Origin: an uncultured Muribaculaceae bacterium
GTDB taxonomy: Bacteria > Bacillota_I > Bacilli_A > RF39 > UBA660
NCBI GenBank assembly: GCA_964470385.1
Contig: CAYYCR010000002.1
Coordinates: 1-30,927, forward strand
Direction of reading: 5' to 3'
Length of the DNA: 30,927 nt
Shown one piece after another: positions 917 through 30,360 of the stretch (positions within the stretch are counted from its first letter, which is position 1; each line of letters starts with the position of its first letter). Made by a program: the position numbers and the translations under genes. The notes below the pieces were generated by a model, which saw only the letters and a list, made by a program, of their open reading frames with translations, ran no database searches and was not told the DNA's origin.

Positions 917-967
917 AGATTACTTGATAATATTAATTATACCACAATTATAAACAAAAGAAAAGAA

Positions 968-996: not shown

Positions 997-1005
997 AAAA
1001 AAGAG

Positions 1006-1033: not shown

Positions 1034-1044
1034 GGAGGTATTAT

Positions 1045-2646: not shown

Positions 2647-2671
2647 CAACATCAAACCGATGTTGTTTTTT
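2645..2671 (+). terminator. Intrinsic terminator after pyrG (likely bidirectional)
   Basis: AACAACATC-AAACC-GATGTTGTT followed by a T tract, between convergent genes. Confidence 0.75.
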
Positions 2672-2685
2672 ACTTAAAAAGAGAA

Positions 2686-6014: not shown

Positions 6015-6030
6015 ATAATTTCTCCTTTTC

Positions 6031-6171
6031 TTATTTTTCACATGATTGGTGGCTAGAAGATAGTGTTAACATTTCTTCTTCTCTTTTTTCAAATATCATC
6101 GCACTTTCTAATAGTGCTATAAAGATGAAAACAAGAATGGTTGGAATAATCCAACAAACAATTTCTTTCAT
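6031..6171 (-). CDS. 46-aa single-TM peptide (MKEIVCWIIPTILVFIFIALLESAMIFEKREEEMLTLSSSHQSCEK)
   Basis: Not in the ORF track; RBS AAAAGGGGGA; its stop abuts the RBS of the ABC ATPase. Confidence 0.55.
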   Translation of the reverse strand: MKEIVCWIIPTILVFIFIALLESAMIFEKREEEMLTLSSSHQSCEK

Positions 6172-6235
6172 AGAGTTCCCCCCTTTTCATATACCATTCT
6201 ATCTAATCAATATGACTTAGAAGTGACTGATATCA

Positions 6236-6249
6236 TGACAGTTTTGTCA
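6236..6249. promoter_or_regulatory. Palindromic response-regulator box upstream of the ABC operon
   Basis: TGACA-N4-TGTCA, resembling the TNACA-N4-TGTAA sites of BceR-like regulators; further GTCA repeats at 11-12 bp spacing toward a -10-like TAGAAT. Confidence 0.55.
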
Positions 6250-6289
6250 CACTTTACTTGGTTTTTAATAAAAAAAGGAAAACTTTCTT

Positions 6290-7513
6290 TTAAATCATAT
6301 TCTTATAGAATTTAATAAAAAAAGTAGTTCCTTCGTTTTCAATCGAGGTTGCATAAATTTCTCCCTTTTGTTTTTCCATTACTTTTTTGGCCATGTTTAA
6401 TCCGACTCCAATTGACTCTTTGTTGCTACTTCCTGTATAAAAACGTTTAAATATATGAGGAAGTTCTTCTTTTTTTATTCCACATCCAGTATCATGAATA
6501 GAAACTTCTGTATAAAGAGGATTATCTTTTATGGCAATGGTTATTTTTCCTCCTTTGTTCGTATGTTCATAGGCATTTTTTAAAACATTGACAAAGACTT
6601 CTACTGTCCAATGAAAATCCATAAGGACTTCCACACTCTCTCCTATCGTTGTTACTTCGATATTTTTTAATTCCATTGGAATTTGAAGTGGTTCTAAAGC
6701 TTGTTCAATTACTTTCTTAATATCTGTTGGTTCTAATTTTAGTTGAATGCTCCCACTATCCAGTCTTGACATTTTTAAAAGAGAGGTTACTAGCCATTCG
6801 ATTCGTTCTAATTGAGTTTTGTTTTTTTCTAAAAATTCTTCTTTTGTTTTTTCATCAATATCTCCTTTTCGAAGTAAGTCATTGATTACATACATACTAG
6901 TAAGTGGCGTTTTAATTTGGTGAGAAATATCAGAAAGTACTTGTTCTAGTTCTTTTTTATCTTGTAAGGAGCGATCTGTTTCTTCTTTTAATTTTATGGT
7001 TAATTTGTAAATATCATTTTTAAGAGTGCTTAAACTTCCCTCTTCGTAATTCTTCATATCTAGGGTATAATTGCCATTTAATACTTGGTCCATATAAATT
7101 CCTAGTTGTTTTAAGCTTTGATATTGTTGGTAGAAAAAAAGTAGATAGGAAACGGAGAGTATGATAAATAAAAAGGTCACCATAAAGATTGTCCACATCG
7201 AAAGTTCTAGTTCTAAGTTATGAAAGTGTTCTAAATAATCTAGTGTACCACTTTCATCTAATCCATATTTTTTTAATATCTTTTTGCCTTCTTCAAAATC
7301 TCCTTTTCCAGAGAGAATGGCGTCTATAACATCTTCTTCTAATTCGGGGTGAGTACTCAAAATAGCTGAAATCATATAGCCATTATTTTTAATAAATTCA
7401 CGTTTGTATTTAGAATCCATCCATTTATGAAAAAATATTCCAACTAAGATAGAAAAAGAAAATAGCAATAATTCTACAAATATCAGTTTTTTAAAGCTTT
7501 TATTTTCTAACAT
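6290..7513 (-). CDS. Sensor histidine kinase
   Basis: Two TM segments; H-box SDISHQIKTPLT; N-box NVLKNAYEH; G boxes DTGCGI and GVGL. Confidence 0.95.
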   Translation of the reverse strand: MLENKSFKKLIFVELLLFSFSILVGIFFHKWMDSKYKREFIKNNGYMISAILSTHPELEEDVIDAILSGKGDFEEGKKILKKYGLDESGTLDYLEHFHNLELELSMWTIFMVTFLFIILSVSYLLFFYQQYQSLKQLGIYMDQVLNGNYTLDMKNYEEGSLSTLKNDIYKLTIKLKEETDRSLQDKKELEQVLSDISHQIKTPLTSMYVINDLLRKGDIDEKTKEEFLEKNKTQLERIEWLVTSLLKMSRLDSGSIQLKLEPTDIKKVIEQALEPLQIPMELKNIEVTTIGESVEVLMDFHWTVEVFVNVLKNAYEHTNKGGKITIAIKDNPLYTEVSIHDTGCGIKKEELPHIFKRFYTGSSNKESIGVGLNMAKKVMEKQKGEIYATSIENEGTTFFIKFYKNMI

Positions 7514-8187
7514 GAGTCACCGACCTTATAGCCAATTCCACGAACGGTCTCAATAATTTTCGGTTCATTCGGATTATCTTCTATTTTTTCTCTGATTCTT
7601 TTAATGTAAACAGTTAGAGTATTATCGTTCACATAAGCTTCATTTACGTCCCATATATCAGCTAATATTTTTTCTCTAGAAAAGACGACATTTTGATTAA
7701 GGGCTAAAATAAGAAGAATTTTATATTCTAGTGCAGTTAACATGACGTCCACTCCGTTTTTAAAAACTTTGGCTTGTTTCATATCAATTTTGATATCTCT
7801 AATGGTAATTACAGAGTCATTTCCTTTGGCGTTTCTTCTTAATACATTTCTAATTCTAGAAATCAGTTCTCTTGCTTTGAATGGTTTTGTAATATAGTCA
7901 TCGGCTCCCATATCAAGGCCTCTTACAATTGAAATTTCTAAATCATTTGCAGTTAAAAAGATAACTGGAATGTCTTTCTTTTGTTTGATTTTTTCAAATA
8001 CGTAATAGCCATCTTCATCAGGTAAGTTGATATCTAACAAAATCAAATCAATTTTTTCTTCATTTACTTTATCGATTGCCTCTTTGGCTGTTTTCGCTTC
8101 GCTCGTTATAAATTCTTCGGCTTCCAAATAATATTTTAGTCCTACTCGTATTGTTTCTTCGTCTTCTACAATTAAAATCTTATACAT
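7507..8187 (-). CDS. OmpR-family response regulator
   Basis: Receiver domain LILLDINLPD...GADDYITKPF and winged helix with ETVRGIGY; ATG at 8187 behind AGGTGA. Confidence 0.95.
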   Translation of the reverse strand: MYKILIVEDEETIRVGLKYYLEAEEFITSEAKTAKEAIDKVNEEKIDLILLDINLPDEDGYYVFEKIKQKKDIPVIFLTANDLEISIVRGLDMGADDYITKPFKARELISRIRNVLRRNAKGNDSVITIRDIKIDMKQAKVFKNGVDVMLTALEYKILLILALNQNVVFSREKILADIWDVNEAYVNDNTLTVYIKRIREKIEDNPNEPKIIETVRGIGYKVGDSC

Positions 8188-11224: not shown

Positions 11225-14200
11225 TTATATTTTTATTTCACGATATGTCTCATCTAAAAGTGAGTATAACATTCCTTTTACAGGCTTTTTTATCCTCTTC
11301 TCTATTACTTTTGCATACCCTCTTATTTGTTCCTCATAAGAAGATTTCTCGATATTTTTTAATTTATAATCAACAATATAAGCACAACCTGTATCTACAA
11401 TCAGTAAATCTATCATCCCACTAATTTCCTTATTGTCAATTGTTTCTACAAATTCTAATTCTGGATAACATTCTGGATGATCCATTGATTTCCAAAAATC
11501 TTGATGAAAAAAGGCCAATAATTTTTTTCTAGCATATTCCGATAAAGACATTTTACTAAGACTATTTTCAATATCATGATAGTTTGTGTACTGTAAACAC
11601 TCATGCAATTTGATTCCAAGTTCTAATCTTTTTTGTTCCTCAGCATCAACGACATGATAACTTTCAGAAAAATGTTTTTTTTCTATTTTTTCTGGTTCTA
11701 CCAAAAGCTCGATATAGTGAGGTTTCAACTGAGAACAAGTAAGTGAATCTTGATAATTTGTCTCTTTTAATTTTTCGTATTCTTTGGTTAAAGGAATCGT
11801 ATCAATAGGAACTTCTACCGTATAAGGTTTTAAATCTAAACTAATGGATAATAAAATATCATAAAAACTTCGATAATTCATTCTAACATAAGATTCTACT
11901 AATCCATTTTCATTTTTTTCCGTATTACTATCTAAGTTTCCTAAATTTGTTACTAATATCATTTTTTCTTTAGCTCTAGAAAGAGCCACATAGAAAACCC
12001 GAATTCTTTCTGAAATATCTTCCTTTTGATAATCTTCTTTTAATAATTCTTTATAAAATGTTTCTCTAATTCCCTCATCAAAATAAGGAACAATAAATCC
12101 AAATTGACCACTGAATATAAATTTTTCTTTCAAGTCGGCCTTGGAAAATTTTTTTTGTAAACCTGCATAATAGCAAATATGGTATTCAAGTCCTTTGGAT
12201 TTGTGGATACTCATCAAATTTACAGAATCTGCTTTGGTATCCTGATTCATTTGAAATGTCACATCCGATTTTCCCTCAATTGCTTCTTTTAAATAATCGA
12301 TAAAGTCTAATATTTGATACCCCATTTTTTCTAAATTACGTGTTACATCTAATAAATAATCAAGTTTAATATTTAATACTTCAATATTATGTAGGCTCAA
12401 AATATAATGATATAAATCAAAGACATGATAGACCTGTTCTAAAAATTGTGATAATGTATGCGTCTTTGAATATTCAGCCAAAGACTTCATGTTTTGATGA
12501 ATCTCATAAACAATACAAGTTTCATCATCCAAAGCTTCTAGCAAATTTTCTTTATGTTCCATTAATAATTCAAATAGCTTTTCATCGGGAATCCTTGCTA
12601 TCACGGATCTACTAATACTAGCAACAGCATATCGTAAATAATCTTTTGCGTAATTTTTGTCCAATATAGATTGAATCCATCTCATGATATTTTGAATTAC
12701 AAATATTTCATCAGAATATACAAAGGCTTCCTCTTTATGAACCGTTAAAGGAATTTCTAGATAGGTAAAAATCTTTTTATACAAATCAAAAGAGGTTTTT
12801 CGGTCTAATAGAATAGAAAAATCTTGATATTGAATGTCTCTTAATATACGATTGTCTTTATCGTAGACTTGATAATGATTTTGTACCTTATTTTTAATAT
12901 CTTGAGCAATTAAAAAGGCTTCTACTTCTTCTGTTCGATAATATTTTGAAAGTTCTGTATCTTTATATTCATAGTTTAGTATTTCAAAGTGATAATTTTG
13001 ATTGGTAGCTCCCTCTTTTTCATAACTATCATTTCCAAATACCATAGCATGACCACTACAATAATCAGCTCCCCCAATTTCCTCGTCCATAATTTTTTCA
13101 AATAGGAAATTAATATCATCTAATACTTCTCTTCTCGATCTAAAATTTCGATTCAAATCAATTTTTTCACCGTCCTGATGATTTTTATATCGATTATATT
13201 TATCCATAAAAATACTAGGATTGGCATTTCGAAACCGATAGATAGATTGCTTAATATCTCCTACCATATACACATTATTATTAGAGATAAGGGAAATAAA
13301 ATAGTCTCCAATATCATTGGTATCTTGATATTCATCAATCATAATTTCACTAATTTCTTGTTTCAATGTCTCACAGATATCGGAATGTTCCTCTAACAGT
13401 GTGATAGCCAAACGAGCAATATCAGAAAATTCATACATCCCCTCGTTCATTTTATATTGAAGCAATTGTTCATCATATTTTTTTAAAATAGATATTAAAA
13501 TTTGAACAGTCTCTTTTGTTTTCATCACCGATTCTTTTAAATTTTCTTTATTTTCATAAATACAGAGTTCTTTAATTCTTTCTATATGGTCCTTTATTTG
13601 TTCATAATAAAGTTTCATATGAAATAACTCTGATTCCTCTATTTTTTTACTACGTGGAAAGGTAATGTTGGTACAACAACCGATAAAAGCTTTATAATCA
13701 TCATAATGATGACAGGAAAATAAAGGCTCTAAGTAACTTGCAACTTTATTTACAAATTCAATCGAAAGATTATGATATGCACTATTTTTTAAACTTTCTA
13801 GCAAATTGGAAATTTGTTTTTTTTCTACTTCTAATAATTGTTCGTACTGTGAAATTCGTAATTCTAGTTCTAAGTCATGATAATGCGTTTCAAAGTATTC
13901 ATTCAAATATTCTTTTTTATGGGCAAGAGATTCTAGTGAATCGTTTAGTTTTAAGCAAACCGATTTCAACATTTCATCATCTTTAATGGTAAAAGTATCT
14001 AGTAATTTTAGAAATAAAGGATCTTTTTTTTCGTAAAAATGACAAAAAACATCATCAATTAATTCTTTCTTTTTTTTCTCTAATACCACATTATCTGCTA
14101 TTGTGATATCTTTTTTTATTCCTAGTAAATAGTGATATTTTTTCACAAGTGATAGACTATAACTATCAAATGTTGTAATACTTGCTTGATTAAGGCGTTC

Positions 14201-14479
14201 TAATTCTTTTTCTAATTCGGTATTGCCATTTTCAATTTCTTTTTTTAGTTTTTTTCTAACTCTTGTTTTCATTTCAAAAGCTGCTGCTTTGGTAAATGTT
14301 AAAACGACCAAAGAAGAGATAGAAATTCCCTGTTTTAGTTTTTCGATTATACGTTCTGTTAAAACAGCTGTTTTTCCACTTCCTGCTCCTGCACTCACGA
14401 TAATATTACTGCCATTTTGATAGATTGCATTCCATTGTTCATCAGTCCAGGTAGAATTGATTGGTTTTTTAGGTATCAT
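11225..14479 (-). CDS. addA: ATP-dependent helicase/nuclease subunit A (UvrD-like helicase plus C-terminal PD-(D/E)XK nuclease)
   Basis: SAGAGSGKT, IDEYQDT, VGDIKQSIYRFR, SIHKSKGLE, YVALSRAK, GMIDLL..IVDYK; likely start MIPKK at 14479. Confidence 0.93.
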   Translation of the reverse strand: MIPKKPINSTWTDEQWNAIYQNGSNIIVSAGAGSGKTAVLTERIIEKLKQGISISSLVVLTFTKAAAFEMKTRVRKKLKKEIENGNTELEKELERLNQASITTFDSYSLSLVKKYHYLLGIKKDITIADNVVLEKKKKELIDDVFCHFYEKKDPLFLKLLDTFTIKDDEMLKSVCLKLNDSLESLAHKKEYLNEYFETHYHDLELELRISQYEQLLEVEKKQISNLLESLKNSAYHNLSIEFVNKVASYLEPLFSCHHYDDYKAFIGCCTNITFPRSKKIEESELFHMKLYYEQIKDHIERIKELCIYENKENLKESVMKTKETVQILISILKKYDEQLLQYKMNEGMYEFSDIARLAITLLEEHSDICETLKQEISEIMIDEYQDTNDIGDYFISLISNNNVYMVGDIKQSIYRFRNANPSIFMDKYNRYKNHQDGEKIDLNRNFRSRREVLDDINFLFEKIMDEEIGGADYCSGHAMVFGNDSYEKEGATNQNYHFEILNYEYKDTELSKYYRTEEVEAFLIAQDIKNKVQNHYQVYDKDNRILRDIQYQDFSILLDRKTSFDLYKKIFTYLEIPLTVHKEEAFVYSDEIFVIQNIMRWIQSILDKNYAKDYLRYAVASISRSVIARIPDEKLFELLMEHKENLLEALDDETCIVYEIHQNMKSLAEYSKTHTLSQFLEQVYHVFDLYHYILSLHNIEVLNIKLDYLLDVTRNLEKMGYQILDFIDYLKEAIEGKSDVTFQMNQDTKADSVNLMSIHKSKGLEYHICYYAGLQKKFSKADLKEKFIFSGQFGFIVPYFDEGIRETFYKELLKEDYQKEDISERIRVFYVALSRAKEKMILVTNLGNLDSNTEKNENGLVESYVRMNYRSFYDILLSISLDLKPYTVEVPIDTIPLTKEYEKLKETNYQDSLTCSQLKPHYIELLVEPEKIEKKHFSESYHVVDAEEQKRLELGIKLHECLQYTNYHDIENSLSKMSLSEYARKKLLAFFHQDFWKSMDHPECYPELEFVETIDNKEISGMIDLLIVDTGCAYIVDYKLKNIEKSSYEEQIRGYAKVIEKRIKKPVKGMLYSLLDETYREIKI

Positions 14480-16904
14480 AATTCTCACCTCTTTCTAAAA
14501 ATTCCAAATTTTTATATTCTTTCAATGTTTTTATATTCTTCGGTTTTAAATAACAAATATCACGGTAATTACAATAAGCACAACTACTTACTTGTTCTTT
14601 TATTTCACTAGAAAATTTTTTCGGCATAACAGCAAATTGAGCATTTCCTACCTTTTCTTCAACTTCTTCAATATTCTTTTTTACAATATCCAAAAGTTGT
14701 TCTAAAATATAGGGTTCTAATAAACGATTCGATTGATAAAAATCCCCATCTTTTTTCATCCGTACTCCTTTAATATAACTAGAATCCATATATTGATTGT
14801 CAAGCCTACTCACAAATTCGGTTCGTTTCAATGTAATTCCGTCTAATTTACTTTGTTCCCATAATAATTCATCTAGAGTTTTCTTTTCTGTATAATTAGG
14901 AATTGAAGAAGAAATCGATTCAACATAAGCCCCTCCTAACTGATACTTAGAAAAACGATTATCTTTAGAAATCAAATACAGATATAATAGAAGTTGCATA
15001 TTCATACCATAAATAACTTTGGATAAATCACTTGTGGAATGACCCGTTTTATAATCGATTACAATAATATAACTATTTTCCTTATCTTCTACTGTCATTA
15101 TTTTATCAATTTTACCAAATATTTTAAATGTAATGTTCTTATGTTCTAACCACTCTATGGTTTCCTCAAAATAAGTAGGTGTAAAAGAAGAACGTTCTAG
15201 TTGTTGTTCCATTAATAAAATAAGTCTTTTAATTTCCATACGATATTTTTGAAAGTAAAATTCTTTTTTTTCGTTAGGAGTCATTTCTATTTTAGAAAGT
15301 TCTTGATTGATAATTGATTCTAAATTTTCTTTATTTTGAAAGTACTGTTCTAATATGGCATGAAATAAATTTCCAACGATTAAACTAGGACTTTCTTCAA
15401 ATGGGGGTGTAATTTTTAAAATTGACCCAACATAATATTTAAACGGACACTCAAAAAATTTCTGCATTCCTGTATAAGAAAGAACACAATAGGGGACATA
15501 TTTTTCAAATAATTTTTGCTGAATTCCCGTAAATTGATTATCGTAAGAATTATAATATAACGATTCTATTCCATACAAATTAGATAGATGTTCATTTTGA
15601 TAATTAAAATTGACAAATTCATCTAAGGAACTATTTAATAAATACTCATTATAGGCTTGATTAGAATATTGATAATGACATTTTTCAATCATGACATTTC
15701 TCTTTTCCCGATATTGTTCGATAAGAGAAGACGGCAAGTATTCCTTAAATGGACTTTTCTTTTTATAGCTAAGAAAAACATGAGGCAAAGACTCTATTTT
15801 TTTTCTAATTTTGGCTTCTTCGCCACTTGTCATTTCTAAAGAAGTTGGAAGAAAAAGAAGTTCTTTTTCTTTATCACTAAAATAATCTTGGTTCTCATAA
15901 ATAGGCGGAAATTCTCCTAAGTTTGCCCCCATTAGGAAAATATAATCCTCTGTATCAAATAAGGTTGTCTTAAAATCTACTTCTTTTATGATATTAGAGT
16001 ATGTTTCTCTTTTTACTTTCGTATGTTTTAATTCATATAATAAGATATCTTTAATTTCTTTAAAAGTCCTATTTTTCTGATAGTAAGGATTGATAATGGT
16101 AATGATTGAATCATAAATTTCATGATGAAAAGAAATATTATCGGGATATGATTTTTTTAGTTGTTCTATGATTTCTTCTAACATACTTAATGGTTGATTC
16201 CAATCAATCATAGATAAAAATTGTTGAATGATTTCGTATTCAAATAGAAAATGATTGTCTTTGGTTTCAATGGGAATATGAAAATAATGAGATACTTTTG
16301 ATAAGATGCTTTTATAGTCACTATTTGTCATCCCTAAATAAATATGGTTAGGAGAAATTCCATCTACAAGTAACTGTGAAATTTTTTCAAATGTTCCAAT
16401 GACTTCTTGTTCTATGGTTTCATATTCAGTAATTTCTGGAAGATAAGAATTGTTTTCTTCTTCAAAATATTTCACTTCTGTATATTTAGATAAGATATGT
16501 TCTAAAAATTTCATCTCGTAAGAATCATATCCATAGATATATACTTTATGGTTTTTTAATTGGGCTAAAAAGGCATCATGAGTTATCAATAAATTTTGTT
16601 CTTTTAGCCATTCTTTTTTTTGATAAAGATCACTGGATTGTTCTTCTGAGGTGATTGCGTACATAGCCTCCAATATAATAGCACCATTTTCAGGAAGCAA
16701 ATTAAATTCTTTTGTCAGTTTCCATAAGGCTTCTTTGTGATATTCATACAACAATTGTGTTTTTAATTCTTCCTTATTTAAAAATTGAATGTGGTAAAAA
16801 TGACTTTCTGATGAAAGAGCTTGTAATATTCTTTTTTTATAAGTGGTTGGGGTAACACAGATACAAGGTTCCTCTTTCAATTGTTTTAATAATTCCATCT
16901 CCAT
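14469..16904 (-). CDS. addB: AddB-like subunit with C-terminal PD-(D/E)XK nuclease and Fe-S cysteines
   Basis: FECPFKYY, GKIDKI..VIDYKTG, CAYCNYRDIC; overlaps the start of addA. Confidence 0.85.
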   Translation of the reverse strand: MEMELLKQLKEEPCICVTPTTYKKRILQALSSESHFYHIQFLNKEELKTQLLYEYHKEALWKLTKEFNLLPENGAIILEAMYAITSEEQSSDLYQKKEWLKEQNLLITHDAFLAQLKNHKVYIYGYDSYEMKFLEHILSKYTEVKYFEEENNSYLPEITEYETIEQEVIGTFEKISQLLVDGISPNHIYLGMTNSDYKSILSKVSHYFHIPIETKDNHFLFEYEIIQQFLSMIDWNQPLSMLEEIIEQLKKSYPDNISFHHEIYDSIITIINPYYQKNRTFKEIKDILLYELKHTKVKRETYSNIIKEVDFKTTLFDTEDYIFLMGANLGEFPPIYENQDYFSDKEKELLFLPTSLEMTSGEEAKIRKKIESLPHVFLSYKKKSPFKEYLPSSLIEQYREKRNVMIEKCHYQYSNQAYNEYLLNSSLDEFVNFNYQNEHLSNLYGIESLYYNSYDNQFTGIQQKLFEKYVPYCVLSYTGMQKFFECPFKYYVGSILKITPPFEESPSLIVGNLFHAILEQYFQNKENLESIINQELSKIEMTPNEKKEFYFQKYRMEIKRLILLMEQQLERSSFTPTYFEETIEWLEHKNITFKIFGKIDKIMTVEDKENSYIIVIDYKTGHSTSDLSKVIYGMNMQLLLYLYLISKDNRFSKYQLGGAYVESISSSIPNYTEKKTLDELLWEQSKLDGITLKRTEFVSRLDNQYMDSSYIKGVRMKKDGDFYQSNRLLEPYILEQLLDIVKKNIEEVEEKVGNAQFAVMPKKFSSEIKEQVSSCAYCNYRDICYLKPKNIKTLKEYKNLEFLERGENYDT

Positions 16905-19428: not shown

Positions 19429-20133
19429 TTATCCTAAAAAATTAAGAATAAATGGTCCTAAAATTAAAATCATAATCAATGGTACCACAAATAATACTGA
19501 AATAATACTGATTTTATTTGGGATTTTATTGATTTGTCCTTTAATTTCTAATGTTTGTTTGTCTCTTAAAAAAGCAATTTGATTGTACATGGTTTCTAAG
19601 ATACTATTTCCAAATATGTTGGTTTGTGTAATATTTAGAATAATATTATTAACGGTTTCTGAGGGAATTCTTTTTTTCATATCTTCTAATGCCTCAAACA
19701 AAGATTTTCCAAAGTGAACCTCTAAGAGTGACCGTTTAAATTCATCAGATAATTCTGAATGAACATTAGAAACCGTAACTTCTAAAGAATTTTCTAGATT
19801 TCTTCCTGATTCTAAAGTAAGGGTTAAAATCTCAAAAAAGTATAAGGCTTCATGATCGAGTTTCCGAATTCTATCTTTGAGTGGTTTGGTTAAAATCAAA
19901 TAATAGTAAGCATAATACCAAGCAAGCGTAATTGCTGGTGCGAAAATATAAGCAGGTCTTGCTTGATATAGAACAATCAAGAATACAATTAACGAAGATA
20001 ATAATTGAAGATTGATAAATGTAACAGCATCAAACTTTGCTTTTCCTCCTAGCATATCAATCTGCATTTGTATTCTATCAATATCTTTTTCACGATAAAT
20101 TTTTCGAATAATATTGTTTTTCAATATTATCAC
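19429..20133 (-). CDS. TadC-like type II secretion system F-family membrane platform protein
   Basis: T2SSF-like core (LESGRNLENSL...FGKSLFEALEDM) with flanking TM helices; last gene of the Tad-like operon. Confidence 0.8.
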   Translation of the reverse strand: MIILKNNIIRKIYREKDIDRIQMQIDMLGGKAKFDAVTFINLQLLSSLIVFLIVLYQARPAYIFAPAITLAWYYAYYYLILTKPLKDRIRKLDHEALYFFEILTLTLESGRNLENSLEVTVSNVHSELSDEFKRSLLEVHFGKSLFEALEDMKKRIPSETVNNIILNITQTNIFGNSILETMYNQIAFLRDKQTLEIKGQINKIPNKISIISVLFVVPLIMILILGPFILNFLG

Positions 20134-21653
20134 ATCCTAACTGTCATAATTTTTTTCACACAAATAATATACACAACATAGAAAATAACAATCAACAATG
20201 ATAAGCAAATTCCAATTGGGGTTGTAAAGAATGGTAAAAAGTATTCTGGATTGATTACACTTACAAAAATCACAAATAAAATCGGAACACAAAATAATAC
20301 ATACATAATCATTTTGGAACTACTGGTTAAAGACTCTAATTCTAACCATAATTTTTTCTTATTAAAAAGAGATTGTTCAATCGAAGAGAATACTTTGATG
20401 ATGTTTCCTCCTGTTTTATTTAAAATACTAAGAGAAGCTGTTAAATAATTTACTTCTTCTAACTCGATTCTACTCGCAAATCGTTCAAATACCACATCTA
20501 TCGATAAGCCATAGGATAGTTCTGCTCGCATTTTTCTAAATTCTTTAGAAATGGATCCATCTAGTTCTGTTGCAACTAGTTCAATCGCTTGGGTAATACT
20601 TCTTCCTGATTTAAAAGCATTATTCATAATAATAATAGCCTGCAACAAGTCATTTTCAATATGTCTCCGATGTATTTTATGTTTGGAAATGTAAAGAATA
20701 TCTGGAGCAAAAAAACCTAGAAAAAAAGGAAAAACAATTTCATATGGGTTCATGAGCTCAATTTGTAGTGTCGAGGAGATTATTGCTATCACAACAAAGA
20801 TAATTCCAATAAATAGTTTGGCTGCAATAAAGTCCATTCCTGTTCTAGAAAAATCTCCCATAATTCCCACGTATTTGTCGTAGTTTTTGGCATATTTTTG
20901 TAGAAATACCGATTTGGATAGGTAACGACTTACTTTTTTTAGCATATTACAGTAAATAGAATAATATTGATCAAATAAAGAAAGGGAATTATCGTGAAGT
21001 GGTTCTACTACGTATTTGCGGATTCTCCGTTCTAATTTAACACTTTTTCTATAAGATAACATGGCTAAAATGATCGTAATTAGAGCTATAATAATGCCAA
21101 ATTGAATTAACATAACACCAAAGGTATCATCTTTTACAACATTAATCATCATGCTTTTACTCGTACTATTTCCAGCTCTATCGGTTACAGTATAGGTGAG
21201 TTTTTTGACTCCAAGTTCGTCGAAATTCAGTTCATCAATATTAGTGGTAACCGATTCTATTAAATCTCCGTCTTGAGTATCGTAAGCTTTCACATCAGCC
21301 ATTGGGTACAAAATAGAACCGACTCTCATTTTTAGTGCTTCTGTTTTAAGTGTAATGGTTGGAGCATCTTTATCGATATTGTAAGTTCCACTTTCTATTA
21401 CCGTTTTACGGTTATAATAGTCAAATGCTTCTACAATAATTTGATAGTTACCTGTTTCTTCTAATATGATCTGAGTCGGTATTTCTCCTTCTATCGTTTC
21501 TGCCTTTATTGGAACACCGTCTTTTAAAACTGAGTAATGATATCTCATGGTGGATGAGCCTGGTGTAAATAAAATATTCAAATCTTGATTGGTTGATTCT
21601 ACATGAGAATCTAAATTAAAGTTTGCTATGACTTGCTCCTCCATTCTCCTCAC
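20130..21653 (-). CDS. TadB-like T2SSF protein with an N-terminal Ig-like extension (about 175 aa)
   Basis: C-terminal AFKSGRSITQAI...TGGNIIKVF core; N-terminal beta-rich DKDAPTITL...YTVTDRAGNSTSK motif before the first TM. Confidence 0.8.
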   Translation of the reverse strand: MRRMEEQVIANFNLDSHVESTNQDLNILFTPGSSTMRYHYSVLKDGVPIKAETIEGEIPTQIILEETGNYQIIVEAFDYYNRKTVIESGTYNIDKDAPTITLKTEALKMRVGSILYPMADVKAYDTQDGDLIESVTTNIDELNFDELGVKKLTYTVTDRAGNSTSKSMMINVVKDDTFGVMLIQFGIIIALITIILAMLSYRKSVKLERRIRKYVVEPLHDNSLSLFDQYYSIYCNMLKKVSRYLSKSVFLQKYAKNYDKYVGIMGDFSRTGMDFIAAKLFIGIIFVVIAIISSTLQIELMNPYEIVFPFFLGFFAPDILYISKHKIHRRHIENDLLQAIIIMNNAFKSGRSITQAIELVATELDGSISKEFRKMRAELSYGLSIDVVFERFASRIELEEVNYLTASLSILNKTGGNIIKVFSSIEQSLFNKKKLWLELESLTSSSKMIMYVLFCVPILFVIFVSVINPEYFLPFFTTPIGICLSLLIVIFYVVYIICVKKIMTVRM

Positions 21654-22987
21654 CTCTTTTCTGGTTCAAATATATCTGTTAAAGTGTTTATTCCTCTCGA
21701 TTTCAATATTTTATATACATTGGGAATGCGTTTGTGAAGAACAAATTCTCCTAATACTTCACCATTTTCTTTGACTCCATCTTGTCTAAATTCGAATATT
21801 TCCTCTATTTTTATAGCGTCTTCTTCAATTCCTGTAATTTCTCCAATGCTAGTTACTTTTCTTCTACCATCGGTTAGTCTTGATACTTGGATGACAATGT
21901 TGATAGCCCCCTCAATATATTCACGAATGGCTCTGATTGGAATTTCCATTCCAGCCATAAGTACCATGGTTTCCAAACGATTCAAAGCATCAATTGGACT
22001 ATTGGCATGCATGGTAGTCAAAGATCCATTATGTCCTGTGTTCATCGCTTGAAGCATATCAAAGGCTTCTTTTCCACGTACTTCTCCAACAATAATTCGA
22101 TCTGGTCTCATACGCAAGGAATTAATCACAAGGTCTCTAATAGTAATGGCACCCTCTCCCTCATAGTTGGTAAGTCTTGTTTCTAGAGAAATAACGTGTT
22201 CTTGTTCTAGTCTTAATTCAGCTGCGTCTTCTATGGTAATGATACGTTCACTTGGAGATATGAAAGAAGATAGTACGTTTAATAAGGTGGTTTTCCCGCT
22301 TCCTGTTCCTCCGCATATAATGATGTTTAGTTTGGCTTCCACACAGGCTTCTAAAAATCTTGCCATGTAGGGAGTTAATGCCCCTGTTCTTAAAAAGTCT
22401 TCGATATTAGCAAGTTCTTCTTTGAATTTTCGAATGGTTAAAACGGGTCCATTTAAGGATAATGGTGGTATGACAGCATTTAGTCTGGAACCGTCTATCA
22501 GTCTGGCATCAACCATTGGATTGGCAGTATCTATGGTTCTTCCAAGAGGTTGTATCATTCGTTGAATGGTTCTTAAAATATGGTCCTCATTGATGAATGA
22601 TATACTGTTATCACGAACCACTTTTCCATCTAATTCAATATAGATTTCGTCTTTTCCGTTTACCATGATTTCTGTAATATCTTTATCTTCTAATAATTCG
22701 GTCAATGGTCCATTTCCACTGATTTCATTATCGATTAGGTTATATAAATAGCTTCTTTCAACATTAGATAGATCATAGCCATCAATGGTTTTATCAATTT
22801 CAGTTTTGACAAAGTCTGTCATATCTCTTGCTTTGGTAATGTTATTATCAATTAGGTTCTGAATAATTTTCGTTCGAAGTTCATCTAGTAGGACTTTATT
22901 TGGAAAAGCTTCATAGTCGGAGACATAGGAAACTTGTGGAGTTTCTATTTGAACATCAAATTCTTCTACAAATTTTTTTTTGGCCAT
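21650..22987 (-). CDS. cpaF: CpaF/TadA pilus assembly ATPase
   Basis: [46 protein letters not shown]. Confidence 0.95.
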
Positions 22988-22998
22988 ATAAATCCTCC

Positions 22999-23760
22999 TT
23001 ATTTTTTTTCTTTCATTAAGTCATTAATGATTGTTTTATAGATAGCAATTGCTTTTTTGTGTTTTCCTGTAATGCTTTTTTGTAGTGTTAAAATGTGGCC
23101 ATCTAGTATAAATCGATCGATGTTTTTAAGATGGAAACTTTTTGGTATCACATAGTCGATTTTATTTTTGATAACGTTTTTGATATCGGTCTTAGTAAAG
23201 TAGTTTCGTTCTTTATGAATGGATTCGTTTAATAGAATTTTATAGTTTTCTTGTTCCATATCTTTATGAATGGCAATTCTAGTTGCCATGTTTTTTAAAT
23301 CGATTGGATCATTACCAATTATGTAGAGTATTTCATCGCTGGCATCTAAGGAAACCAGTGTTAAGTCATTTAAAAAGTGATTGGTATCAATTAGAATGAC
23401 ATCATATCGATAAAGAACTTTAGACATGACTACGGATATATATTTACTACTGATTTTAGTCGCATTTCTTGGGTCTTTGGGTGCTGGAATAACATCGATA
23501 AAGTCATTATATTTGATAAGATATTCATCAATAGTTTGAAAGCGATTACTGCCTAGGTCATCTACCAATCGATAAATGTCTTGATCGTTAGAGATGTTTA
23601 GTGATAAAGCAATCGCTCCTCCATAAACATCTAAGTCCAGTATTAAGGTTTTCTTTTTTTGTGTACTTAAAACACCTGCTAAGTTTAGTAGTGTGGTTGT
23701 TTTTCCAGTTCCTCCTTTTACAGAAGCGATTGTCAAGACTTTTGCTTTTGTTAATGCCAT
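22999..23760 (-). CDS. CpaE/TadZ-like MinD/ParA-family ATPase
   Basis: KGGTGKTT deviant Walker A; directly upstream of cpaF. Confidence 0.8.
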   Translation of the reverse strand: MALTKAKVLTIASVKGGTGKTTTLLNLAGVLSTQKKKTLILDLDVYGGAIALSLNISNDQDIYRLVDDLGSNRFQTIDEYLIKYNDFIDVIPAPKDPRNATKISSKYISVVMSKVLYRYDVILIDTNHFLNDLTLVSLDASDEILYIIGNDPIDLKNMATRIAIHKDMEQENYKILLNESIHKERNYFTKTDIKNVIKNKIDYVIPKSFHLKNIDRFILDGHILTLQKSITGKHKKAIAIYKTIINDLMKEKK

Positions 23761-23769
23761 ATTATCCCT

Positions 23770-24159
23770 CTATTTCTTTTCGATGTTTTTTTCTCCATTG
23801 ATCAGATTTCCTTTATAGGAAAGTTGAATGGTTTTATTTGGAGTTGTCATTAGTCCAAAGATTGTAGTTATCTTTTTTTCGATTTGTAGTTGTATGTACT
23901 CATTTCCTATTTCTATTTTCATATCATAGATATCGTTGATGTTTTCGTTGATTAGATGTGCCATATTGATTTTTAGTGTTTGGGGTTCTTCTTCTAAGTG
24001 ATCTAGACCATAGGAAATGGTATCTTTCATAACGTTTTCTATTTTTCGCTTTTCTATATATGAGATTCCGGTATCAATGATGATTCCAGCAAATAAGAGT
24101 AAAACTGGTAATAATAAGGAAAATAAGATAAGTACTTGTCCTTTACGGTTCATTTGCAA
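23770..24159 (-). CDS. TadG/TadE-like pseudopilin
   Basis: RKG|QVLILFSLLLPVLLLFAGIIID class III-like leader and hydrophobic helix; lacks Glu+5. Confidence 0.7.
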   Translation of the reverse strand: MQMNRKGQVLILFSLLLPVLLLFAGIIIDTGISYIEKRKIENVMKDTISYGLDHLEEEPQTLKINMAHLINENINDIYDMKIEIGNEYIQLQIEKKITTIFGLMTTPNKTIQLSYKGNLINGEKNIEKK

Positions 24160-24481
24160 TCACCCGTTTGGCTTCTATGGTGTAATTTTTTCCTAATATT
24201 TTATTTAATCCTGGTGTGTTCACTACTACTTTTTTGGTTAAGGTAATGGTAATCGTGTTGCTTTTTTGTTCTATTGATGATGTGATATCTTTTGTTTTTA
24301 AGTAATAATCGATTTCTACAGTTTTGTTTTGTCTTACTAGTTCTGTTACATAGTCTAAGTCGTTTTCTAATATATATTTTTTATAAAGAATATTACCAAA
24401 ATCTATTACTCCTAATAAAAGTAATAATAGGATTGGTAATATTATGATAAATTCTACTAGTGCTTGTCCTTTGTTCTTCAT
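24143..24481 (-). CDS. TadE-like pseudopilin
   Basis: MKNKG|QALVEFIIILPILLLLLLGVIDFG, the typical TadE motif. Confidence 0.85.
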   Translation of the reverse strand: MKNKGQALVEFIIILPILLLLLLGVIDFGNILYKKYILENDLDYVTELVRQNKTVEIDYYLKTKDITSSIEQKSNTITITLTKKVVVNTPGLNKILGKNYTIEAKRVIANEP

Positions 24482-25863: not shown

Positions 25864-27024
25864 TTAGTTTGCATATTCACTTGTAATTCCCAAGTATTCT
25901 TCCAAAGTAATCCAATTTCCTCCATTATAAAGTTTTGAGGCAATATCTCCTACATATCTTAAATGCCATGGTTCGTATCGATATCCTGTAATATTTTCTT
26001 TCCCTTTTGGATAACGAATAATGAATCCGTATTTATAAGCATTGTTTTGTAACCATTGTCCCTCTTTTGTTTCCCCAAAACTAAATAATAAGCTATTCAC
26101 ATCAATGGCTAATCCCGTTTGATGTTCTGAATGTCCTGGTCTTGCTGAATAAGTATCCGCCTCTATTTTTCCGTCCTTTGCTACATAATTATTATAAATT
26201 CTATTTTGAGCACTATAAGAACGGAAGCCACTAATGATGTTTAGTTCAACTCCATCTTCTAAAGCTCCTGCTTTTAGTTTTTCAAAAGCTGAGTTTAGTT
26301 CTGGTAATAATCCTGGAGCATAACTACTTGGCAAAGCATAAGTTTTATTGGCAATTAAAATGTTTCCGATATAATAAACTCCATTTCTTACTTCAATGGA
26401 ATAACCTTTCGATGTCTTTTTAGAAACGTTGTTTTGATTTCCTTGATAATTAGGAACTTCATTATTTTTTTTAGGAGGAACAACATTATTAGAAACATCT
26501 TTTTCTTTTATTATTAATTGAAATGCTTCTGTTTTTTTATTACCACTTTTATCTGTTGCTTCATAAGTAAGAGAATATTCTCCCTTTTTGGTTATATCAT
26601 ATTCTCCTTTTACTTCGATTTCTACTTTATCATGACTATTGTCACTTACTTTAATATCTTTTAATAAGTCGATTTCTTCATTTTCATAAATTTCTATATT
26701 TTTGACATTCTCTATTATAGGTTCTATATCATCTATCACTATTAAATTTATTTTTTGTTCTTTTTCTTTTACTAGAAAACTACCCTGATAAGTTCCAGCA
26801 TGATAAATTTTTTCATCTTCCAATTCTAATTTTTCCCATTTTATCTTTTCTGTTATTATTTTTTTTCCTAACTGATATTCTGTTTCCATTGGTACTTTTT
26901 CCCCAATTTTTAATTTGATTTCTTTTTGATAGGAAAGAGCTTCATTTTTTTTAGAAAGAAACATTATCATTCCCCCTACAATTATAATTACAACCAAAAA
27001 AATAAATATTAGTTTCTTTTTCAT
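25864..27024 (-). CDS. Membrane-anchored D-alanyl-D-alanine carboxypeptidase (M15B/VanY-like) with an Ig-like spacer
   Basis: SGFRSY, SARPGHSEHQTGLAID, YEPWHLRYVG; N-terminal TM; likely start MKKKL at 27024 behind AAAGGTGA. Confidence 0.9.
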   Translation of the reverse strand: MKKKLIFIFLVVIIIVGGMIMFLSKKNEALSYQKEIKLKIGEKVPMETEYQLGKKIITEKIKWEKLELEDEKIYHAGTYQGSFLVKEKEQKINLIVIDDIEPIIENVKNIEIYENEEIDLLKDIKVSDNSHDKVEIEVKGEYDITKKGEYSLTYEATDKSGNKKTEAFQLIIKEKDVSNNVVPPKKNNEVPNYQGNQNNVSKKTSKGYSIEVRNGVYYIGNILIANKTYALPSSYAPGLLPELNSAFEKLKAGALEDGVELNIISGFRSYSAQNRIYNNYVAKDGKIEADTYSARPGHSEHQTGLAIDVNSLLFSFGETKEGQWLQNNAYKYGFIIRYPKGKENITGYRYEPWHLRYVGDIASKLYNGGNWITLEEYLGITSEYAN

Positions 27025-27224
27025 ACGTTTCACCTTTCTCATTATAACACTAAGAATTATGAATGACAACAAAAAAATAGACTTGTAAAAATGATTATTT
27101 ATAGAATTCTATAAATAATCATCCCATTAAAACAGGAGATACTTTAATTTGATTGGTTAAGTATTCCTCAATTTATATAGATAATTACATCATTGATTGC
27201 CTTTTTTATCTATCTTAGACAATG

Positions 27225-28667
27225 TCACATTGATAAACGGTAAGGTTCTTGTTCTGTTCCTTTTCCTGATGTGATTTTTACTTCTGGTTTTAGGAAAAGT
27301 GAGGGACGAACACCATAAGTGCCGTTCGCGTGGGGTGCGTCGACAAACCCCTCCGTGTACACAAGCCACACGCCGTTCGGGCTGCCGCTATACGGCGTAA
27401 TTGTCCATTGATATGTACTATTGTTAAATAGGTAGTTATTACTGATACATACATTATTAGTGCTCATTAAATTCGTTGCTCTTTCACAACTTGCATTATT
27501 TGAAGCATATCCATAATCGGTTATACTCATTAGTCCTATATACCCTGTTGATGATGAACTTCTTTCTGCCTCTTCAAAAGTTCCTAATGTATAGTCACTT
27601 CCATTTACTCCTGTATACCATGTTCCATTGGCGATATAACTTCTACTAGTCTCATCGATATAATTTGTATTACTATAAAAGCTTGTCCCATTTAATTCCG
27701 TTTTCAAATCAGCTGGTCGATTCCAATTACTTGAACCCCATGTTCCACCAGTCGTATCCCATCTTAACGATGTACTATAGAAACTATTTTTGATTATCTT
27801 CATTTTTCCGTCTATCACACCTATAATTCGATATAAATGATTTTCATCACAGGTTGCATTCTGTGTTCCAAAGCATACATAGTTATTGGGATTACTTCCT
27901 GCATATCTTTTATTTCCTAAATTATCTGTTCTGATTGTTCCATTTGCTCCCACTTCTGCTGTCATTTTATCTTCTGTTAATACTGTACTTGACGATTCCA
28001 CGATTATTGTTTTACTTGCTTTCACTGTTTTTCCTGCTTCTGTTACTGTACATTCTATAACATGTGTTCCATTATCCAAACTACTTGTATTTGTTACTTC
28101 TACATTTTCGTTTGAGGTATCTACACATCTAACACTTCCAAATCTTATATTAAAGTATTCTAATATTGATTTGGAAACTCCTTTTTCTATTGTTTCACTT
28201 TTAGAATCTTTTACTGTAATTAATGAAATATCACTTCCCTCTGGTATTTTACATTTATCTTTTTCATATTTGATTAATCTTACATTCGTATCAGTTTTAC
28301 TCTTTATCGCACACCATTCGTTATTATGAATGGCTAGAGCTATTTCTCCACTTTTGCTGAGTGTTAAAATTCCACCTTTTGGTTTTGAACCACTATAAGA
28401 TAGTACATTCGTAGTCCCCTCTTCAAACGAAAACACTTGGTCTACTGGGTCAGTTTCTTCTAATATACTCTCAGCAAAATAACTTTTGGCTGCTTCCATA
28501 ATTCCATACGCACTATCTTGAAAAGCACTTTTCCTAACTTTCGTTAAAATACTTAAAATTATCGGAGTAGCTATAAGTGCTATTACAGCTAGTATTACGA
28601 TAACTGCTAATAACTCTATTAACGTAAACCCCTTTTTCTTCTGATTTCTTTTTGCAAATTTTTTCAT
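27225..28667 (-). CDS. Type IV prepilin-domain surface protein, paralog 1, with a C-terminal lectin-like variable domain
   Basis: KKKG|FTLIELLAVIVILAVIALIA class III signal with Glu+5; C-terminal WTITP...VWLV..EGFV...YGVRPSLFL. Confidence 0.88.
   Translation of the reverse strand: MKKFAKRNQKKKGFTLIELLAVIVILAVIALIATPIILSILTKVRKSAFQDSAYGIMEAAKSYFAESILEETDPVDQVFSFEEGTTNVLSYSGSKPKGGILTLSKSGEIALAIHNNEWCAIKSKTDTNVRLIKYEKDKCKIPEGSDISLITVKDSKSETIEKGVSKSILEYFNIRFGSVRCVDTSNENVEVTNTSSLDNGTHVIECTVTEAGKTVKASKTIIVESSSTVLTEDKMTAEVGANGTIRTDNLGNKRYAGSNPNNYVCFGTQNATCDENHLYRIIGVIDGKMKIIKNSFYSTSLRWDTTGGTWGSSNWNRPADLKTELNGTSFYSNTNYIDETSRSYIANGTWYTGVNGSDYTLGTFEEAERSSSSTGYIGLMSITDYGYASNNASCERATNLMSTNNVCISNNYLFNNSTYQWTITPYSGSPNGVWLVYTEGFVDAPHANGTYGVRPSLFLKPEVKITSGKGTEQEPYRLSM
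27302..27401 (-). other. Candidate DGR variable region 1
   Basis: GC-rich patch: core 27340-27401 is 37/62 G+C and none of its 20 full codons ends in A; differs from region 2 only at codon positions 1 and 2. Confidence 0.7.
28420..28622. repeat. 203-bp exact direct repeat, copy 1 (pilin N-terminal coding region)
   Basis: Identical by manual comparison to 29974-30176. Confidence 0.9.
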
Positions 28668-28775
28668 TTCTATAACTCCTATCCCATTACTTTTTATCAG
28701 TTTTTATTTTAACATTTATAATAACAATCTCAAAACGGGTCGCCTAGAAGTGACAAAGTTTCCCAACCGACATAA

Positions 28776-30227
28776 CTACTTCGATAAACGATATGGATTT
28801 CCTGTCGTTCCATCTCCATCTGTTACTTTTACATCGGATTCTAGATATAGGACTGGACGCACGCCGCTGGTGCTGTGTGCAGTGTTGGCATCGACATACC
28901 CCTCCGTGCGCACAAACCACACGCCGTACGTGAGGCCGCTATTCGGCGTAATCGTCCATTGATATGTACTACTATTTAATAGGTAATTATTACTGATACA
29001 TGCATTATTAGTAGTGTTTAAATTTGTCGTTCTTTCACAACTTGCATTATTTGATCCATATCCAAAATCGGTTACACTCATTAGTCCTATATATCCTTGT
29101 GATGACGAACTTCTTTCTGCATCCTCAAAATCTGCTAATGTTGCATTAGGATAGATTGCTCCTCCTGTATACCATGTTCCATTTGCGATATAACTTCTGC
29201 TTACCTCATCGATATAATTTGAATTACTATAAAAACTTGTTCCATTTAATTCTGTTTTCAATGTTGCTGGTCTATCCCAGTTATTTGATCCATATGTTCC
29301 ACCAGTTGTATCCCATCTTAAAGCGGTACTATAGAAACTATTTTTGATTATCTTCATTTTTCCGTCTATCACACCTATGATTCGATATAAATGATTTTCA
29401 TCACAGGTTTTATTCTCTGTTCCAAAACATACCCAGTTATTCGGATTACTTCCTGCATATCTTTTATTCCCTAAATTATCGGTTCTTATTGTTCCATTTT
29501 CTCCTACTTCAGAAGTCATCATTTCTTCTGTTAATACTTTACCTAATGATTCCACCACAATTGTTTTATTTGCTGATACTGTATTTCCATTTTCCACTAC
29601 TGTACATTCTATACAGTGCGTACCACTACTTAAACTACTGGTATTGTTTACTTCTACATTTTCATTTGAAGTATCTACACATCTAGCACTCCCCGATATC
29701 ACATTAAAATATTCCAATATGGATTTATCAAGTCCTTTTTCTATCGTTTCACTTTTTGAATCTTTTACGGAAATAAGGGGTAAATCACTTCCGTCTGGTA
29801 TTTTACATTTATCCTTTTCATATTTGATTAATCTTACATTCGTATCAGTTTTACTTTTGATTGCACACCATTCATTATTATGTATGGCTAGAGCTATTTC
29901 TCCACTTTTACTAAGTGTCAGAATTCCACCTTTTGGTTTACTTCCACTATACGATAATTCATTACTAGCTCCATCTTCAAACGAAAACACTTGGTCTACT
30001 GGGTCAGTTTCTTCTAATATACTCTCAGCAAAATAACTTTTGGCTGCTTCCATAATTCCATACGCACTATCTTGAAAAGCACTTTTCCTAACTTTCGTTA
30101 AAATACTTAAAATTATCGGAGTAGCTATAAGTGCTATTACAGCTAGTATTACGATAACTGCTAATAACTCTATTAAAGTGAATCCTTTATTTTTGCCTCT
30201 ATGATTATTACTTGTTACTTTTATCAT
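28776..30227 (-). CDS. Type IV prepilin-domain surface protein, paralog 2, with a C-terminal lectin-like variable domain
   Basis: KNKG|FTLIELLAVIVILAVIALIA; same architecture as paralog 1; likely start MIKVT at 30227 behind AGGAG. Confidence 0.88.
   Translation of the reverse strand: MIKVTSNNHRGKNKGFTLIELLAVIVILAVIALIATPIILSILTKVRKSAFQDSAYGIMEAAKSYFAESILEETDPVDQVFSFEDGASNELSYSGSKPKGGILTLSKSGEIALAIHNNEWCAIKSKTDTNVRLIKYEKDKCKIPDGSDLPLISVKDSKSETIEKGLDKSILEYFNVISGSARCVDTSNENVEVNNTSSLSSGTHCIECTVVENGNTVSANKTIVVESLGKVLTEEMMTSEVGENGTIRTDNLGNKRYAGSNPNNWVCFGTENKTCDENHLYRIIGVIDGKMKIIKNSFYSTALRWDTTGGTYGSNNWDRPATLKTELNGTSFYSNSNYIDEVSRSYIANGTWYTGGAIYPNATLADFEDAERSSSSQGYIGLMSVTDFGYGSNNASCERTTNLNTTNNACISNNYLLNSSTYQWTITPNSGLTYGVWFVRTEGYVDANTAHSTSGVRPVLYLESDVKVTDGDGTTGNPYRLSK
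28853..28952 (-). other. Candidate DGR variable region 2
   Basis: GC-rich patch homologous to region 1; core 28891-28952; no A-ending codons in the core. Confidence 0.7.
29974..30176. repeat. 203-bp exact direct repeat, copy 2
   Basis: Identical by manual comparison to 28420-28622. Confidence 0.9.
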
Positions 30228-30360
30228 CACAACAACTCCTATTCTTTTTCTAAACTTGAGAACTATTTTATACATTTAGAAATATCCAATATTTTTATCT
30301 ATTCTCATTCTATCACATTACTATCACTTCTATCAATATTATTTTTTGATTTCCTTAAAA

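Follow-up and report, generated by a model that had tools for sequence, protein, structure and literature searches.

The window considered here is the whole of a 30,927-nt contig (CAYYCR010000002.1, GenBank assembly GCA_964470385.1) from the metagenome-assembled genome (MAG) of an uncultured member of the Bacilli, and the elements under study are two type IV pilin-like genes lying in tandem on the minus strand of this 31-kb contig. Each gene ends in a GC-rich variable region that bears the marks of a diversity-generating retroelement (DGR); in prokaryotes, DGRs are to our knowledge the only machines in nature that direct hypermutation to particular proteins. The two genes belong to a large family in the source genome (hereafter G000; 1.59 Mb in 199 contigs, 72% complete, 4% contamination), and the variable regions can be related to DGR cassettes found in other species of the same genus.

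Two pilin-like genes and their variable regions

The two predicted proteins (paralogs 1 and 2; Table 1) are 82% identical in amino-acid sequence and alike in architecture, paralog 1 comprising a prepilin N-terminus, β-rich middle domains and a C-terminal DUF6273/C-type-lectin-like domain. In both, the G↓F-x-x-x-E motif followed by a hydrophobic helix is recognized by PF07963 (E ~1e-8) as well as by TIGR02532, and the real start of paralog 2 is probably the methionine of an MIKV sequence, about 16 codons inside its open reading frame (ORF). A family profile aligns over the N-terminal helix with the solved type IV pilins PilE1, PilA and geopilin (E 4e-8 to 1e-4), and over its C-terminus with the N-terminal domain, a DUF6273 domain, of the IgA peptidase from Thomasclavelia ramosa. 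At ~480 residues the family proteins are far larger than major pilins and may act as minor or tip pilins or as membrane-anchored adhesins. Separately, a 203-bp block of the pilin N-terminus is 100% identical between the otherwise diverged tandem genes (28420–28622 and 29974–30176) and has 84–90% identity in other family members, which points to recent gene conversion between the two.

Inspection of 62-nt cores within the variable regions (27340–27401 and 28891–28952, minus strand) shows nine nucleotide differences, all at codon positions 1 or 2, which result in seven amino-acid changes (Y/N, S/L, P/T, N/Y, L/F, Y/R and F/Y); one copy has A at six of the nine sites, no codon ends in A, and the first third-position difference (GAC/GAT) falls one base beyond the core. 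Outside the variable region, third positions account for 108 and first or second positions for 92 of the 200 differences between the paralogs, and the skew of the core relative to the rest of the genes is significant (Fisher p=0.008). Further, 24% of third positions differ in the flanks as against none in the core, which implies that the tract was homogenized after the genes had diverged. Judged from these alignments, the comparisons show that both cores were overwritten from a common template after the paralogs split, keeping the nine differences at positions 1 and 2. The 3' thirds of the two regions do differ at third codon positions, a situation that fits either different templates or different conversion tracts. 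At the end of the variable region, where a conserved, GC-rich homing element of the IMH type would be expected, the 3' end of paralog 2 (GGCGTGCGTCCAGTCC) is close to the end of a variable region in a congener (G001, below) and to the GGGGTGCGCCCAGCCC of the congener templates, and that of paralog 1 (GGTGTTCGTCCCTCAC) is unlike the paralog 2 end.

Base composition sets the same segments apart. The G+C content per 100-nt window is 0.62–0.64 in the variable regions versus 0.23–0.39 elsewhere in the genes (~62% for the regions in a genome of 28.9% G+C), and the G+C content of third codon positions (GC3) is 0.69 in the paralog 1 region versus 0.21 upstream and 0.75 in the paralog 2 region versus 0.19 upstream. 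An alignment of 27 copies of the variable region from G000 places the high-entropy columns at positions 1 and 2 of ~14 codons, with A the commonest base there and only C or T at position 3. In paralog 1 these codons span 27392 to 27316, in keeping with a design of AAY codons (where Y is C or T), from which no stop codon can arise, and the region closes with conserved GVRP codons. Columns in which A is the plurality base have a mean entropy of 1.50 bits in the variable region, as compared with 0.45–0.78 bits for columns of C, G or T plurality and with only 0.43 bits for A-plurality columns in the 600 nt upstream. This column pattern is the AAY-to-NNY one expected from adenine-specific mutagenesis. 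Additionally, the adenines of four congener templates mark the hypervariable columns of G000 (1.55 versus 0.84 bits, Mann-Whitney p ~1e-9).

The whole-assembly BLAST search that supplied these copies recovers 27 DNA-alignable variable regions on ~24 contigs, and a protein search gives 34 matches in G000 as against 0–12 per genome in eight congeners. Most copies are ~480-aa proteins with the pilin motif, 69–80% identical in protein sequence. Their downstream flanks are unique in most cases, a subset sharing flanks at 90–94% identity, and on this ground they are true paralogs and not strain duplicates. The GC3 of the copies grades from 0.69–0.77 in the freshest, both window genes included, down to 0.22. 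Open frames, either full-length or cut off by a contig end, contain nearly all of the copies; the exceptions are a 113-aa remnant on contig C36 and a copy on contig C87 (~3400–3594; locus L006) whose variable region lacks an open frame because of one nucleotide inserted into a run of G and another indel, and which would be either a pseudogene or a recoding site. At ~1.45 kb each, ~27 such genes amount to ~2.5% of the 1.59 Mb of assembled DNA, an investment which suggests that variable adhesion (to host glycans, to other microbes, or as phage decoys) is central to the lifestyle of the organism.

The first-pass annotation of this stretch, made from its letters alone, had recognized DGR-type variable regions in type IV pilin-like genes, and the domain models, column entropies and congener-template adenines given above all agree with it; its counts for the 62-nt core are exact on recount. 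The extent it gave has to be revised, the variable region being 98 nt long, and the GGC at 27372–27374, taken there for an invariant anchor, is a hypervariable AAY-type codon across the paralogs. Likewise, the template it had proposed is too poor in adenines for the ~14 AAY codons over 98 nt which the family comparison gives, and its two genes are part of a much larger system of ~27 close paralogs.

A structure model of paralog 1 (AlphaFold) is in line with the C-type-lectin-like C-terminal fold that the same annotation had anticipated. The full-length model (predicted local distance difference test, pLDDT, 87) has a long N-terminal helix (residues 16–70), a β-rich middle and a compact C-terminal domain. 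As its search against the PDB was dominated by matches to immunoglobulin (Ig) domains, the C-terminal 255 residues were modelled alone (pLDDT 94, predicted template-modelling score 0.91). This model matches the DUF6273 domain of 9qa6, the T. ramosa IgA peptidase (E=7e-8), the C-terminal domain of Legionella Lcl, 8q4e (probability 0.92), C-type lectins weakly, and, in a viral library, DUF6273/DUF1566, tail-fibre and receptor-binding proteins with E-values down to 5e-10. The variable residues (425–450) occupy the end of a strand (420–426), a second strand (432–436) and the loop before the GVRP strand (450–453). The model thereby supports a C-type-lectin-like fold with the variable residues grouped on a β-hairpin and loop just ahead of the GVRP strand, and the same arrangement has been described for phage DUF6273 targets in the tentaclin paper (PMC10743442).

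Cassettes and template arrays in congeners

A DNA search of 40 relatives returned matches in four genomes only, all of the same genus (G001–G004), and in the variable part only. Those in G001–G003 fall in non-coding, adenine-rich, template-like repeats and that in G004 in a short target-like open frame. G001, G003 and G004 carry an Avd gene and a DGR reverse transcriptase (RT) gene followed by template-like repeats, and G002 an array alone at a contig end. The congener Avd matches phrog_3206 (E=4e-11) and the RT phrog_1423 (E=7e-75), with the motifs IGNMSSQ and YMDD. In G001 (locus L016) a target gene, the end of which is at 2681, is followed in turn by a 121-aa ORF, Avd, a 366-aa RT and 8–9 template-like repeats. 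This RT type is present in three of eight congeners, and sampling of 121 genera of the family found RTs of the same type in 36; distant homologs are followed by a single template and then by a conserved element of ~125 nt.

The arrays, situated directly after the RT (Table 1), consist of 7–12 non-coding tandem repeats in length classes of 96–105 nt. When array members are compared with their own consensus, adenines differ 1.4–3.5 times more than other bases, significantly so in three of six arrays. The variable region adjacent to the G001 cassette differs from the array member at 4832 by 13 adenine mismatches and one non-adenine mismatch. Remote targets matching the G001 array were not found at the DNA level; G003 has one, with seven non-adenine mismatches.

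Two strains from one congener species, L034 from an NCBI assembly and L035 from a JGI metagenome contig, encode an identical RT protein and have flanks 99.6–99.7% identical. They share a target gene for a 1088-aa protein with the pilin motif and Ig-like domains, in which 19 of 102 nt differ inside the variable region as compared with 8 of 3085 nt upstream, a 70-fold contrast. The L034 region is best fitted by the array member at 12532 (17 adenine and 3 non-adenine mismatches) and the L035 region by that at 12725 (16 adenine and 2 non-adenine mismatches), and since the best-fitting members are different, at least two members of the array appear to have been donors to the same variable region. 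In L034 the 2.9-kb gap behind the RT contains 12 template-like repeats; a single one is present in L035, where the junction falls inside a repeat unit, and this may reflect either a collapsed assembly or a true loss of sequence. The comparison indicates that the cassette is active in congeners.

It is tempting to extend this to G000, and we tentatively suggest that the DGR of this genus draws on as many as 12 alternative templates arranged in tandem, of which some have a structured RNA to themselves, and that an unassembled library of this kind services the ~27 adhesin genes, a proposal we put forward as rather less than an even chance. If true, cassette choice and adenine mutagenesis together would give a genome of ~2 Mb a very large set of binding tips displayed on pili, one that is in part programmable. 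If the congener arrays are functional donors, they would add a second layer, that of cassette choice, to DGR diversification, and would also explain the routine loss of such loci from short-read assemblies.

Other features recur at the cassettes. The conserved element of ~125 nt follows many templates (5324–5453 of L016 and 13 further copies, alignment A2), folds into three helices and has nine base pairs with compensatory changes; it probably serves the RT-Avd complex as an RNA scaffold for priming. In every relative examined, the cassette has on either side small ORFs whose similarity to MutS domain I is weak or clear, along with a conserved 94-aa ORF.

Table 1. Positions of the pilin-like genes, their neighbours and the congener cassette features (window coordinates unless a locus is named)
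Feature	Location	Strand	Evidence or remark
Paralog 1, 480 aa	27225..28667	-	ORF; PF07963 N_methyl E=1.2e-8, PF19789 DUF6273 E=3.3e-5, TIGR02532
Paralog 2, 499 aa counted from first ATG	28776..30275	-	ORF; PF07963 E=2.4e-8, PF19789 E=4.5e-6
Variable region, paralog 1, 98 nt	27304..27401	-	Column entropies over 27 copies
Variable region, paralog 2, 98 nt	28855..28952	-	GC3 0.75 vs 0.19 upstream
Paralog 1 prepilin cleavage/methylation motif and hydrophobic helix (KKGFTLIELLAVIVILAVIALIA)	28569..28643	-	PF07963, residues 9-33
VanY-type D-Ala-D-Ala carboxypeptidase with Ig-like domain	25864..27072	-	PF02557 E=8.7e-43, PF16403
Tad-type pilus assembly set, downstream on the same strand	19429..24481	-	Pfam matches
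TadE-like gene	24143-24481	-	Pfam
Small ORF within Tad set	23770-24159	-	
ParA/CpaE-like ATPase	22999-23760	-	Pfam
T2SSE ATPase	21650-22987	-	Pfam
T2SSF platform proteins, two	20130-21653 and 19429-20133	-	Pfam
Template-like arrays directly after RT	L016:4829-6782; L034:10104-12826; L014:2252-4004		
Template-like array directly after RT	L017:3875-5627	-	
MutS_I-like small ORFs	L016:3025-3390 and 7270-7695; L034:13343-13768		

The source of the variable regions

The explanation we favour, at a probability of roughly 0.6, is that the window genes are DGR targets within a family of ~27 genes and that their donor acts in trans from outside the window, likely from unassembled DNA. Their identity as DGR targets is well supported and so is remote targeting; present-day activity is unproven. 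Mechanistically, the prepilin N-terminus would be cut by the A24 prepilin peptidase of the genome, the Ig-like domains would serve as spacers, and the C-terminal DUF6273/C-type-lectin-like domain would bind the ligand. The last 98 nt before the GVRP strand would be overwritten by cDNA from a GC-rich, adenine-rich template RNA, with the DGR RT misreading template adenines such that ~14 AAY codons become NNY and the other positions are copied faithfully. By analogy with the congeners, the donor for these ~27 genes would most likely be a cassette of Avd and RT with one template or more behind it, located either in the 28% of the genome missing from the assembly or on an element left out of the bin, and its template would be expected to start with ATTACGCCG-AAT-AGCGGC-AAC-ACG and to have a 3' end of the GGNGTNCGTCC type. 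We infer the continued presence of the cassette in this organism, a supply of the family by more than one template, and display of the products on or by a pilus.

Several results weigh against a resident donor. There is no RVT_1 match on the window contig, as the first-pass annotation had stated in reporting no retroelement there, and the three RT genes of the genome (on contigs C63, C118 and C82) were rejected as DGR RTs, these being a stop-broken group II RT, a 654-aa group-II-like RT and a retron St85-like RT. Avd was found in the 72%-complete assembly neither with the TIGR02436 model nor by tblastn with the congener Avd. BLAST of both regions and of a predicted template based on the family consensus revealed no adenine-rich non-coding copy in the assembly, only coding paralogs, and a search of G000 for the template-associated RNA element of the congeners returned noise only. 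The neighbourhood of yvcK/whiA is the cassette site, with the cassette just upstream, in at least four related species (G001, G003, L034 and L055), and the corresponding site of G000 (on C43) holds unrelated genes and no cassette. No template of a relative is cognate to the G000 regions, the best keeping at least 10 non-adenine mismatches; that of L033, which shares an ACGCCG start with them, has at least 10. Lastly, many copies of the family are without the GC-rich signature, so not all are under rewriting.

Wider searches were in the same vein. In a tblastn search of G000 with the congener accessory ORF, Avd, RT, orf94 and orf141, only the genuine MutS gene on C47 was matched. A metagenome scan with the congener RT, together with nine exact-protein look-ups of genus-level RT homologs, gave no template cognate to G000, and a scan of viral contigs with a degenerate pattern for the G000 template type gave 0 matches. 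The first-pass annotation had placed a single template elsewhere in the genome and looked to a genome BLAST for a non-coding copy beside a DGR RT and an Avd gene. The donor must indeed lie outside the window, as it had said, but neither a template nor a DGR RT nor Avd was found in the 72%-complete assembly. It had allowed that absence of template and RT from a complete genome or from close relatives would count against a DGR; congeners do carry the cassette. Its single template is doubtful, in view of the third-position differences in the 3' thirds and of the 8–12 different templates held by congener arrays.

Of the alternatives, the one that survives best, unlikely as we judge it, is that the variable regions are orphans of a past DGR whose cassette of RT, Avd and template has since been lost, leaving the regions frozen and drifting towards AT-richness. 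It would account for the absence of all cassette markers from the assembly, for the ancestral yvcK-adjacent site lacking a cassette, for the patchiness of the cassette in the genus (its RT type being in three of eight congeners), and for decayed copies with GC3 down to 0.22 or, on C87, a frameshift; there is also a precedent in Treponema denticola isolates that have targets without the DGR core (PMC4891356). Against it, the freshest copies, at GC3 0.69–0.77 with ~0.2 upstream, and the window regions among them, at 0.69–0.75, resemble a congener template (0.68, hand count on the L014 copy at 2549) and show no measurable decay. Moreover, the assembly reaches only 72% completeness, and breakage of assemblies at template arrays is demonstrable: even in the 94%-complete G002 the array sits at a contig end without its RT, and in public data many contigs with the RT go no further than the first template or just beyond it. 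Because cassettes break assemblies and the window regions show no decay, a cassette that is present but unassembled is more likely than its loss.

A second alternative does away with the retroelement and invokes recombination or gene conversion among the ~27 paralogs, coupled with strong positive selection on the binding loop, in the manner of Neisseria pilE/pilS. Donors would be plentiful among the paralogs, the identical 203-bp N-terminal block shows that conversion occurs, and some paralogs share downstream flanks at 90–94% identity. However, conversion cannot yield a tract in which synonymous sites are identical and all differences are confined to positions 1 and 2 of AAY-type codons, nor can it explain why GC3 should reach 0.7 where that of the genome is 0.2, or why template adenines of other species predict the variable columns; further, silent, start-less cassettes are absent from the assembly, in which no non-coding copy was found. 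We regard it as highly improbable. Least credible of all is an artefact, in which the copies would be strain variants or chimeric contigs of a mixed metagenome, for although there are 199 contigs, 4% contamination and several copies at contig ends, the window genes are in tandem on one 31-kb contig, the downstream flanks are mostly unique and those shared only 90–94% identical, and the copies are 69–80% identical in protein sequence.

Known systems and genomic context

DGR targets in Treponema are lipoproteins with a lectin fold of the FGE-sulfatase type. In T. denticola, where TvpA is accompanied by remote targets, a chromosomal DGR acts in trans on several dispersed surface-protein genes via a C-terminal lectin-like region (PMC4891356, PMC5758913), and some Treponema genomes keep targets without RT and template (PMC4891356); the present system resembles these in its remote surface-protein targets. 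It differs from them in that only a handful of targets exists there, as opposed to ~27 here, in the prepilin N-terminus and the DUF6273 domain, and in the template arrays of the congeners in place of one template. DUF6273 is itself a known DGR target domain in phages, C-type-lectin-like and with the variable region on a surface β-hairpin (PMC10743442). The phage proteins concerned (tentaclins, tgt2 of the crAss-like phages nd4/nd12, and those of Faecalibacterium prophages) share this Pfam domain with the window genes, but are receptor-binding proteins encoded beside their own DGR, whereas the window proteins belong to a cell, resemble pilins and are encoded at scattered sites away from any DGR.

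In gut Bacteroides, according to the abstract of a preprint, DGRs diversify the tip adhesins of type V pili (bioRxiv 10.1101/2024.11.15.621889), so that there, too, as far as the abstract goes, the target of a DGR is the adhesive tip of a protein associated with a pilus. Type V pili, however, have no relation to type IV pilins in the way they fold, are exported or assemble, the hosts are of another phylum, and the abstract mentions neither a large paralog family nor a template array. The prototype for adenine-specific mutagenesis from template to variable region, acting with Avd and an RT, is the DGR of Bordetella phage BPP-1 (mtd, avd, template repeat, brt), to which the congener cassette is alike in its Avd, its RT with an IGxxxSQ-type motif and the structured RNA after the template. 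It departs from this prototype in its order (Avd, RT, templates), its extra small MutS_I-like ORF, its up to 12 templates and its cellular, pilin-like targets. With Neisseria pilE/pilS the present system has in common that an exposed C-terminal part of a type IV pilin-like protein is replaced from non-expressed donors, the congener arrays being superficially pilS-like. Pilin variation in Neisseria is a RecA-dependent gene conversion, without reverse transcription or adenine bias. In contrast, the adenine footprint, RT and Avd seen here point to retrohoming.

In the open-access DGR surveys searched, a pilin-type domain receives at most a passing mention, the large ones among them naming neither pilins nor multiple templates, and a literature search found nothing joining DGRs to type IV pilins or to tandem template arrays. 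The mechanism is a known one, and the family of pilin-like targets is unusually large. DGR targets in gut bacteria are only now being worked out, and the host in this case is a reduced, AT-rich, uncultured member of the Bacilli that devotes ~27 genes to DGR-written lectin tips on pilin-like proteins.

In the window, a VanY-type gene sits between the pilin-like genes and a Tad-type locus, the sole one of its kind found in the assembly (Table 1). The TadB-like platform protein (20130–21653) has an N-terminal bacterial Ig-like domain before T2SSF (PF16403, E=2.4e-5, below its cut-off), and an Ig-like domain occurs also in the VanY-type gene. The genome thus has both a prepilin peptidase and pilus assembly machinery: a Peptidase_A24 gene at 2873–3199 of C47 adjoins another member of the variable family, in a second pilus locus (2873–7618) that further includes an ATPase, judged PilB-like from its translation only, and two pseudopilin-like genes. 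This locus is a candidate for the machine that processes and assembles the pilin-like family.

Two of the rejected RTs have features of their own. The C118 RT (404–3144 of locus L012), of 654 aa, is group-II-intron-like (TIGR04416 E=2e-72, below its cut-off) and has a long C-terminal extension; it directly follows and overlaps a 260-aa ORF, the translation of which resembles nucleases of the exonuclease III/EEP family, and the two may constitute a defence-type RT system. The C82 RT (1264–2355 of locus L013) is retron St85-like (NF038233 E=2.6e-66) and unrelated to the pilin-like genes. Elsewhere in the window, an ordinary AddA/AddB-type pair, a UvrD helicase followed by a PD-(D/E)XK nuclease, occupies 11225–16904.

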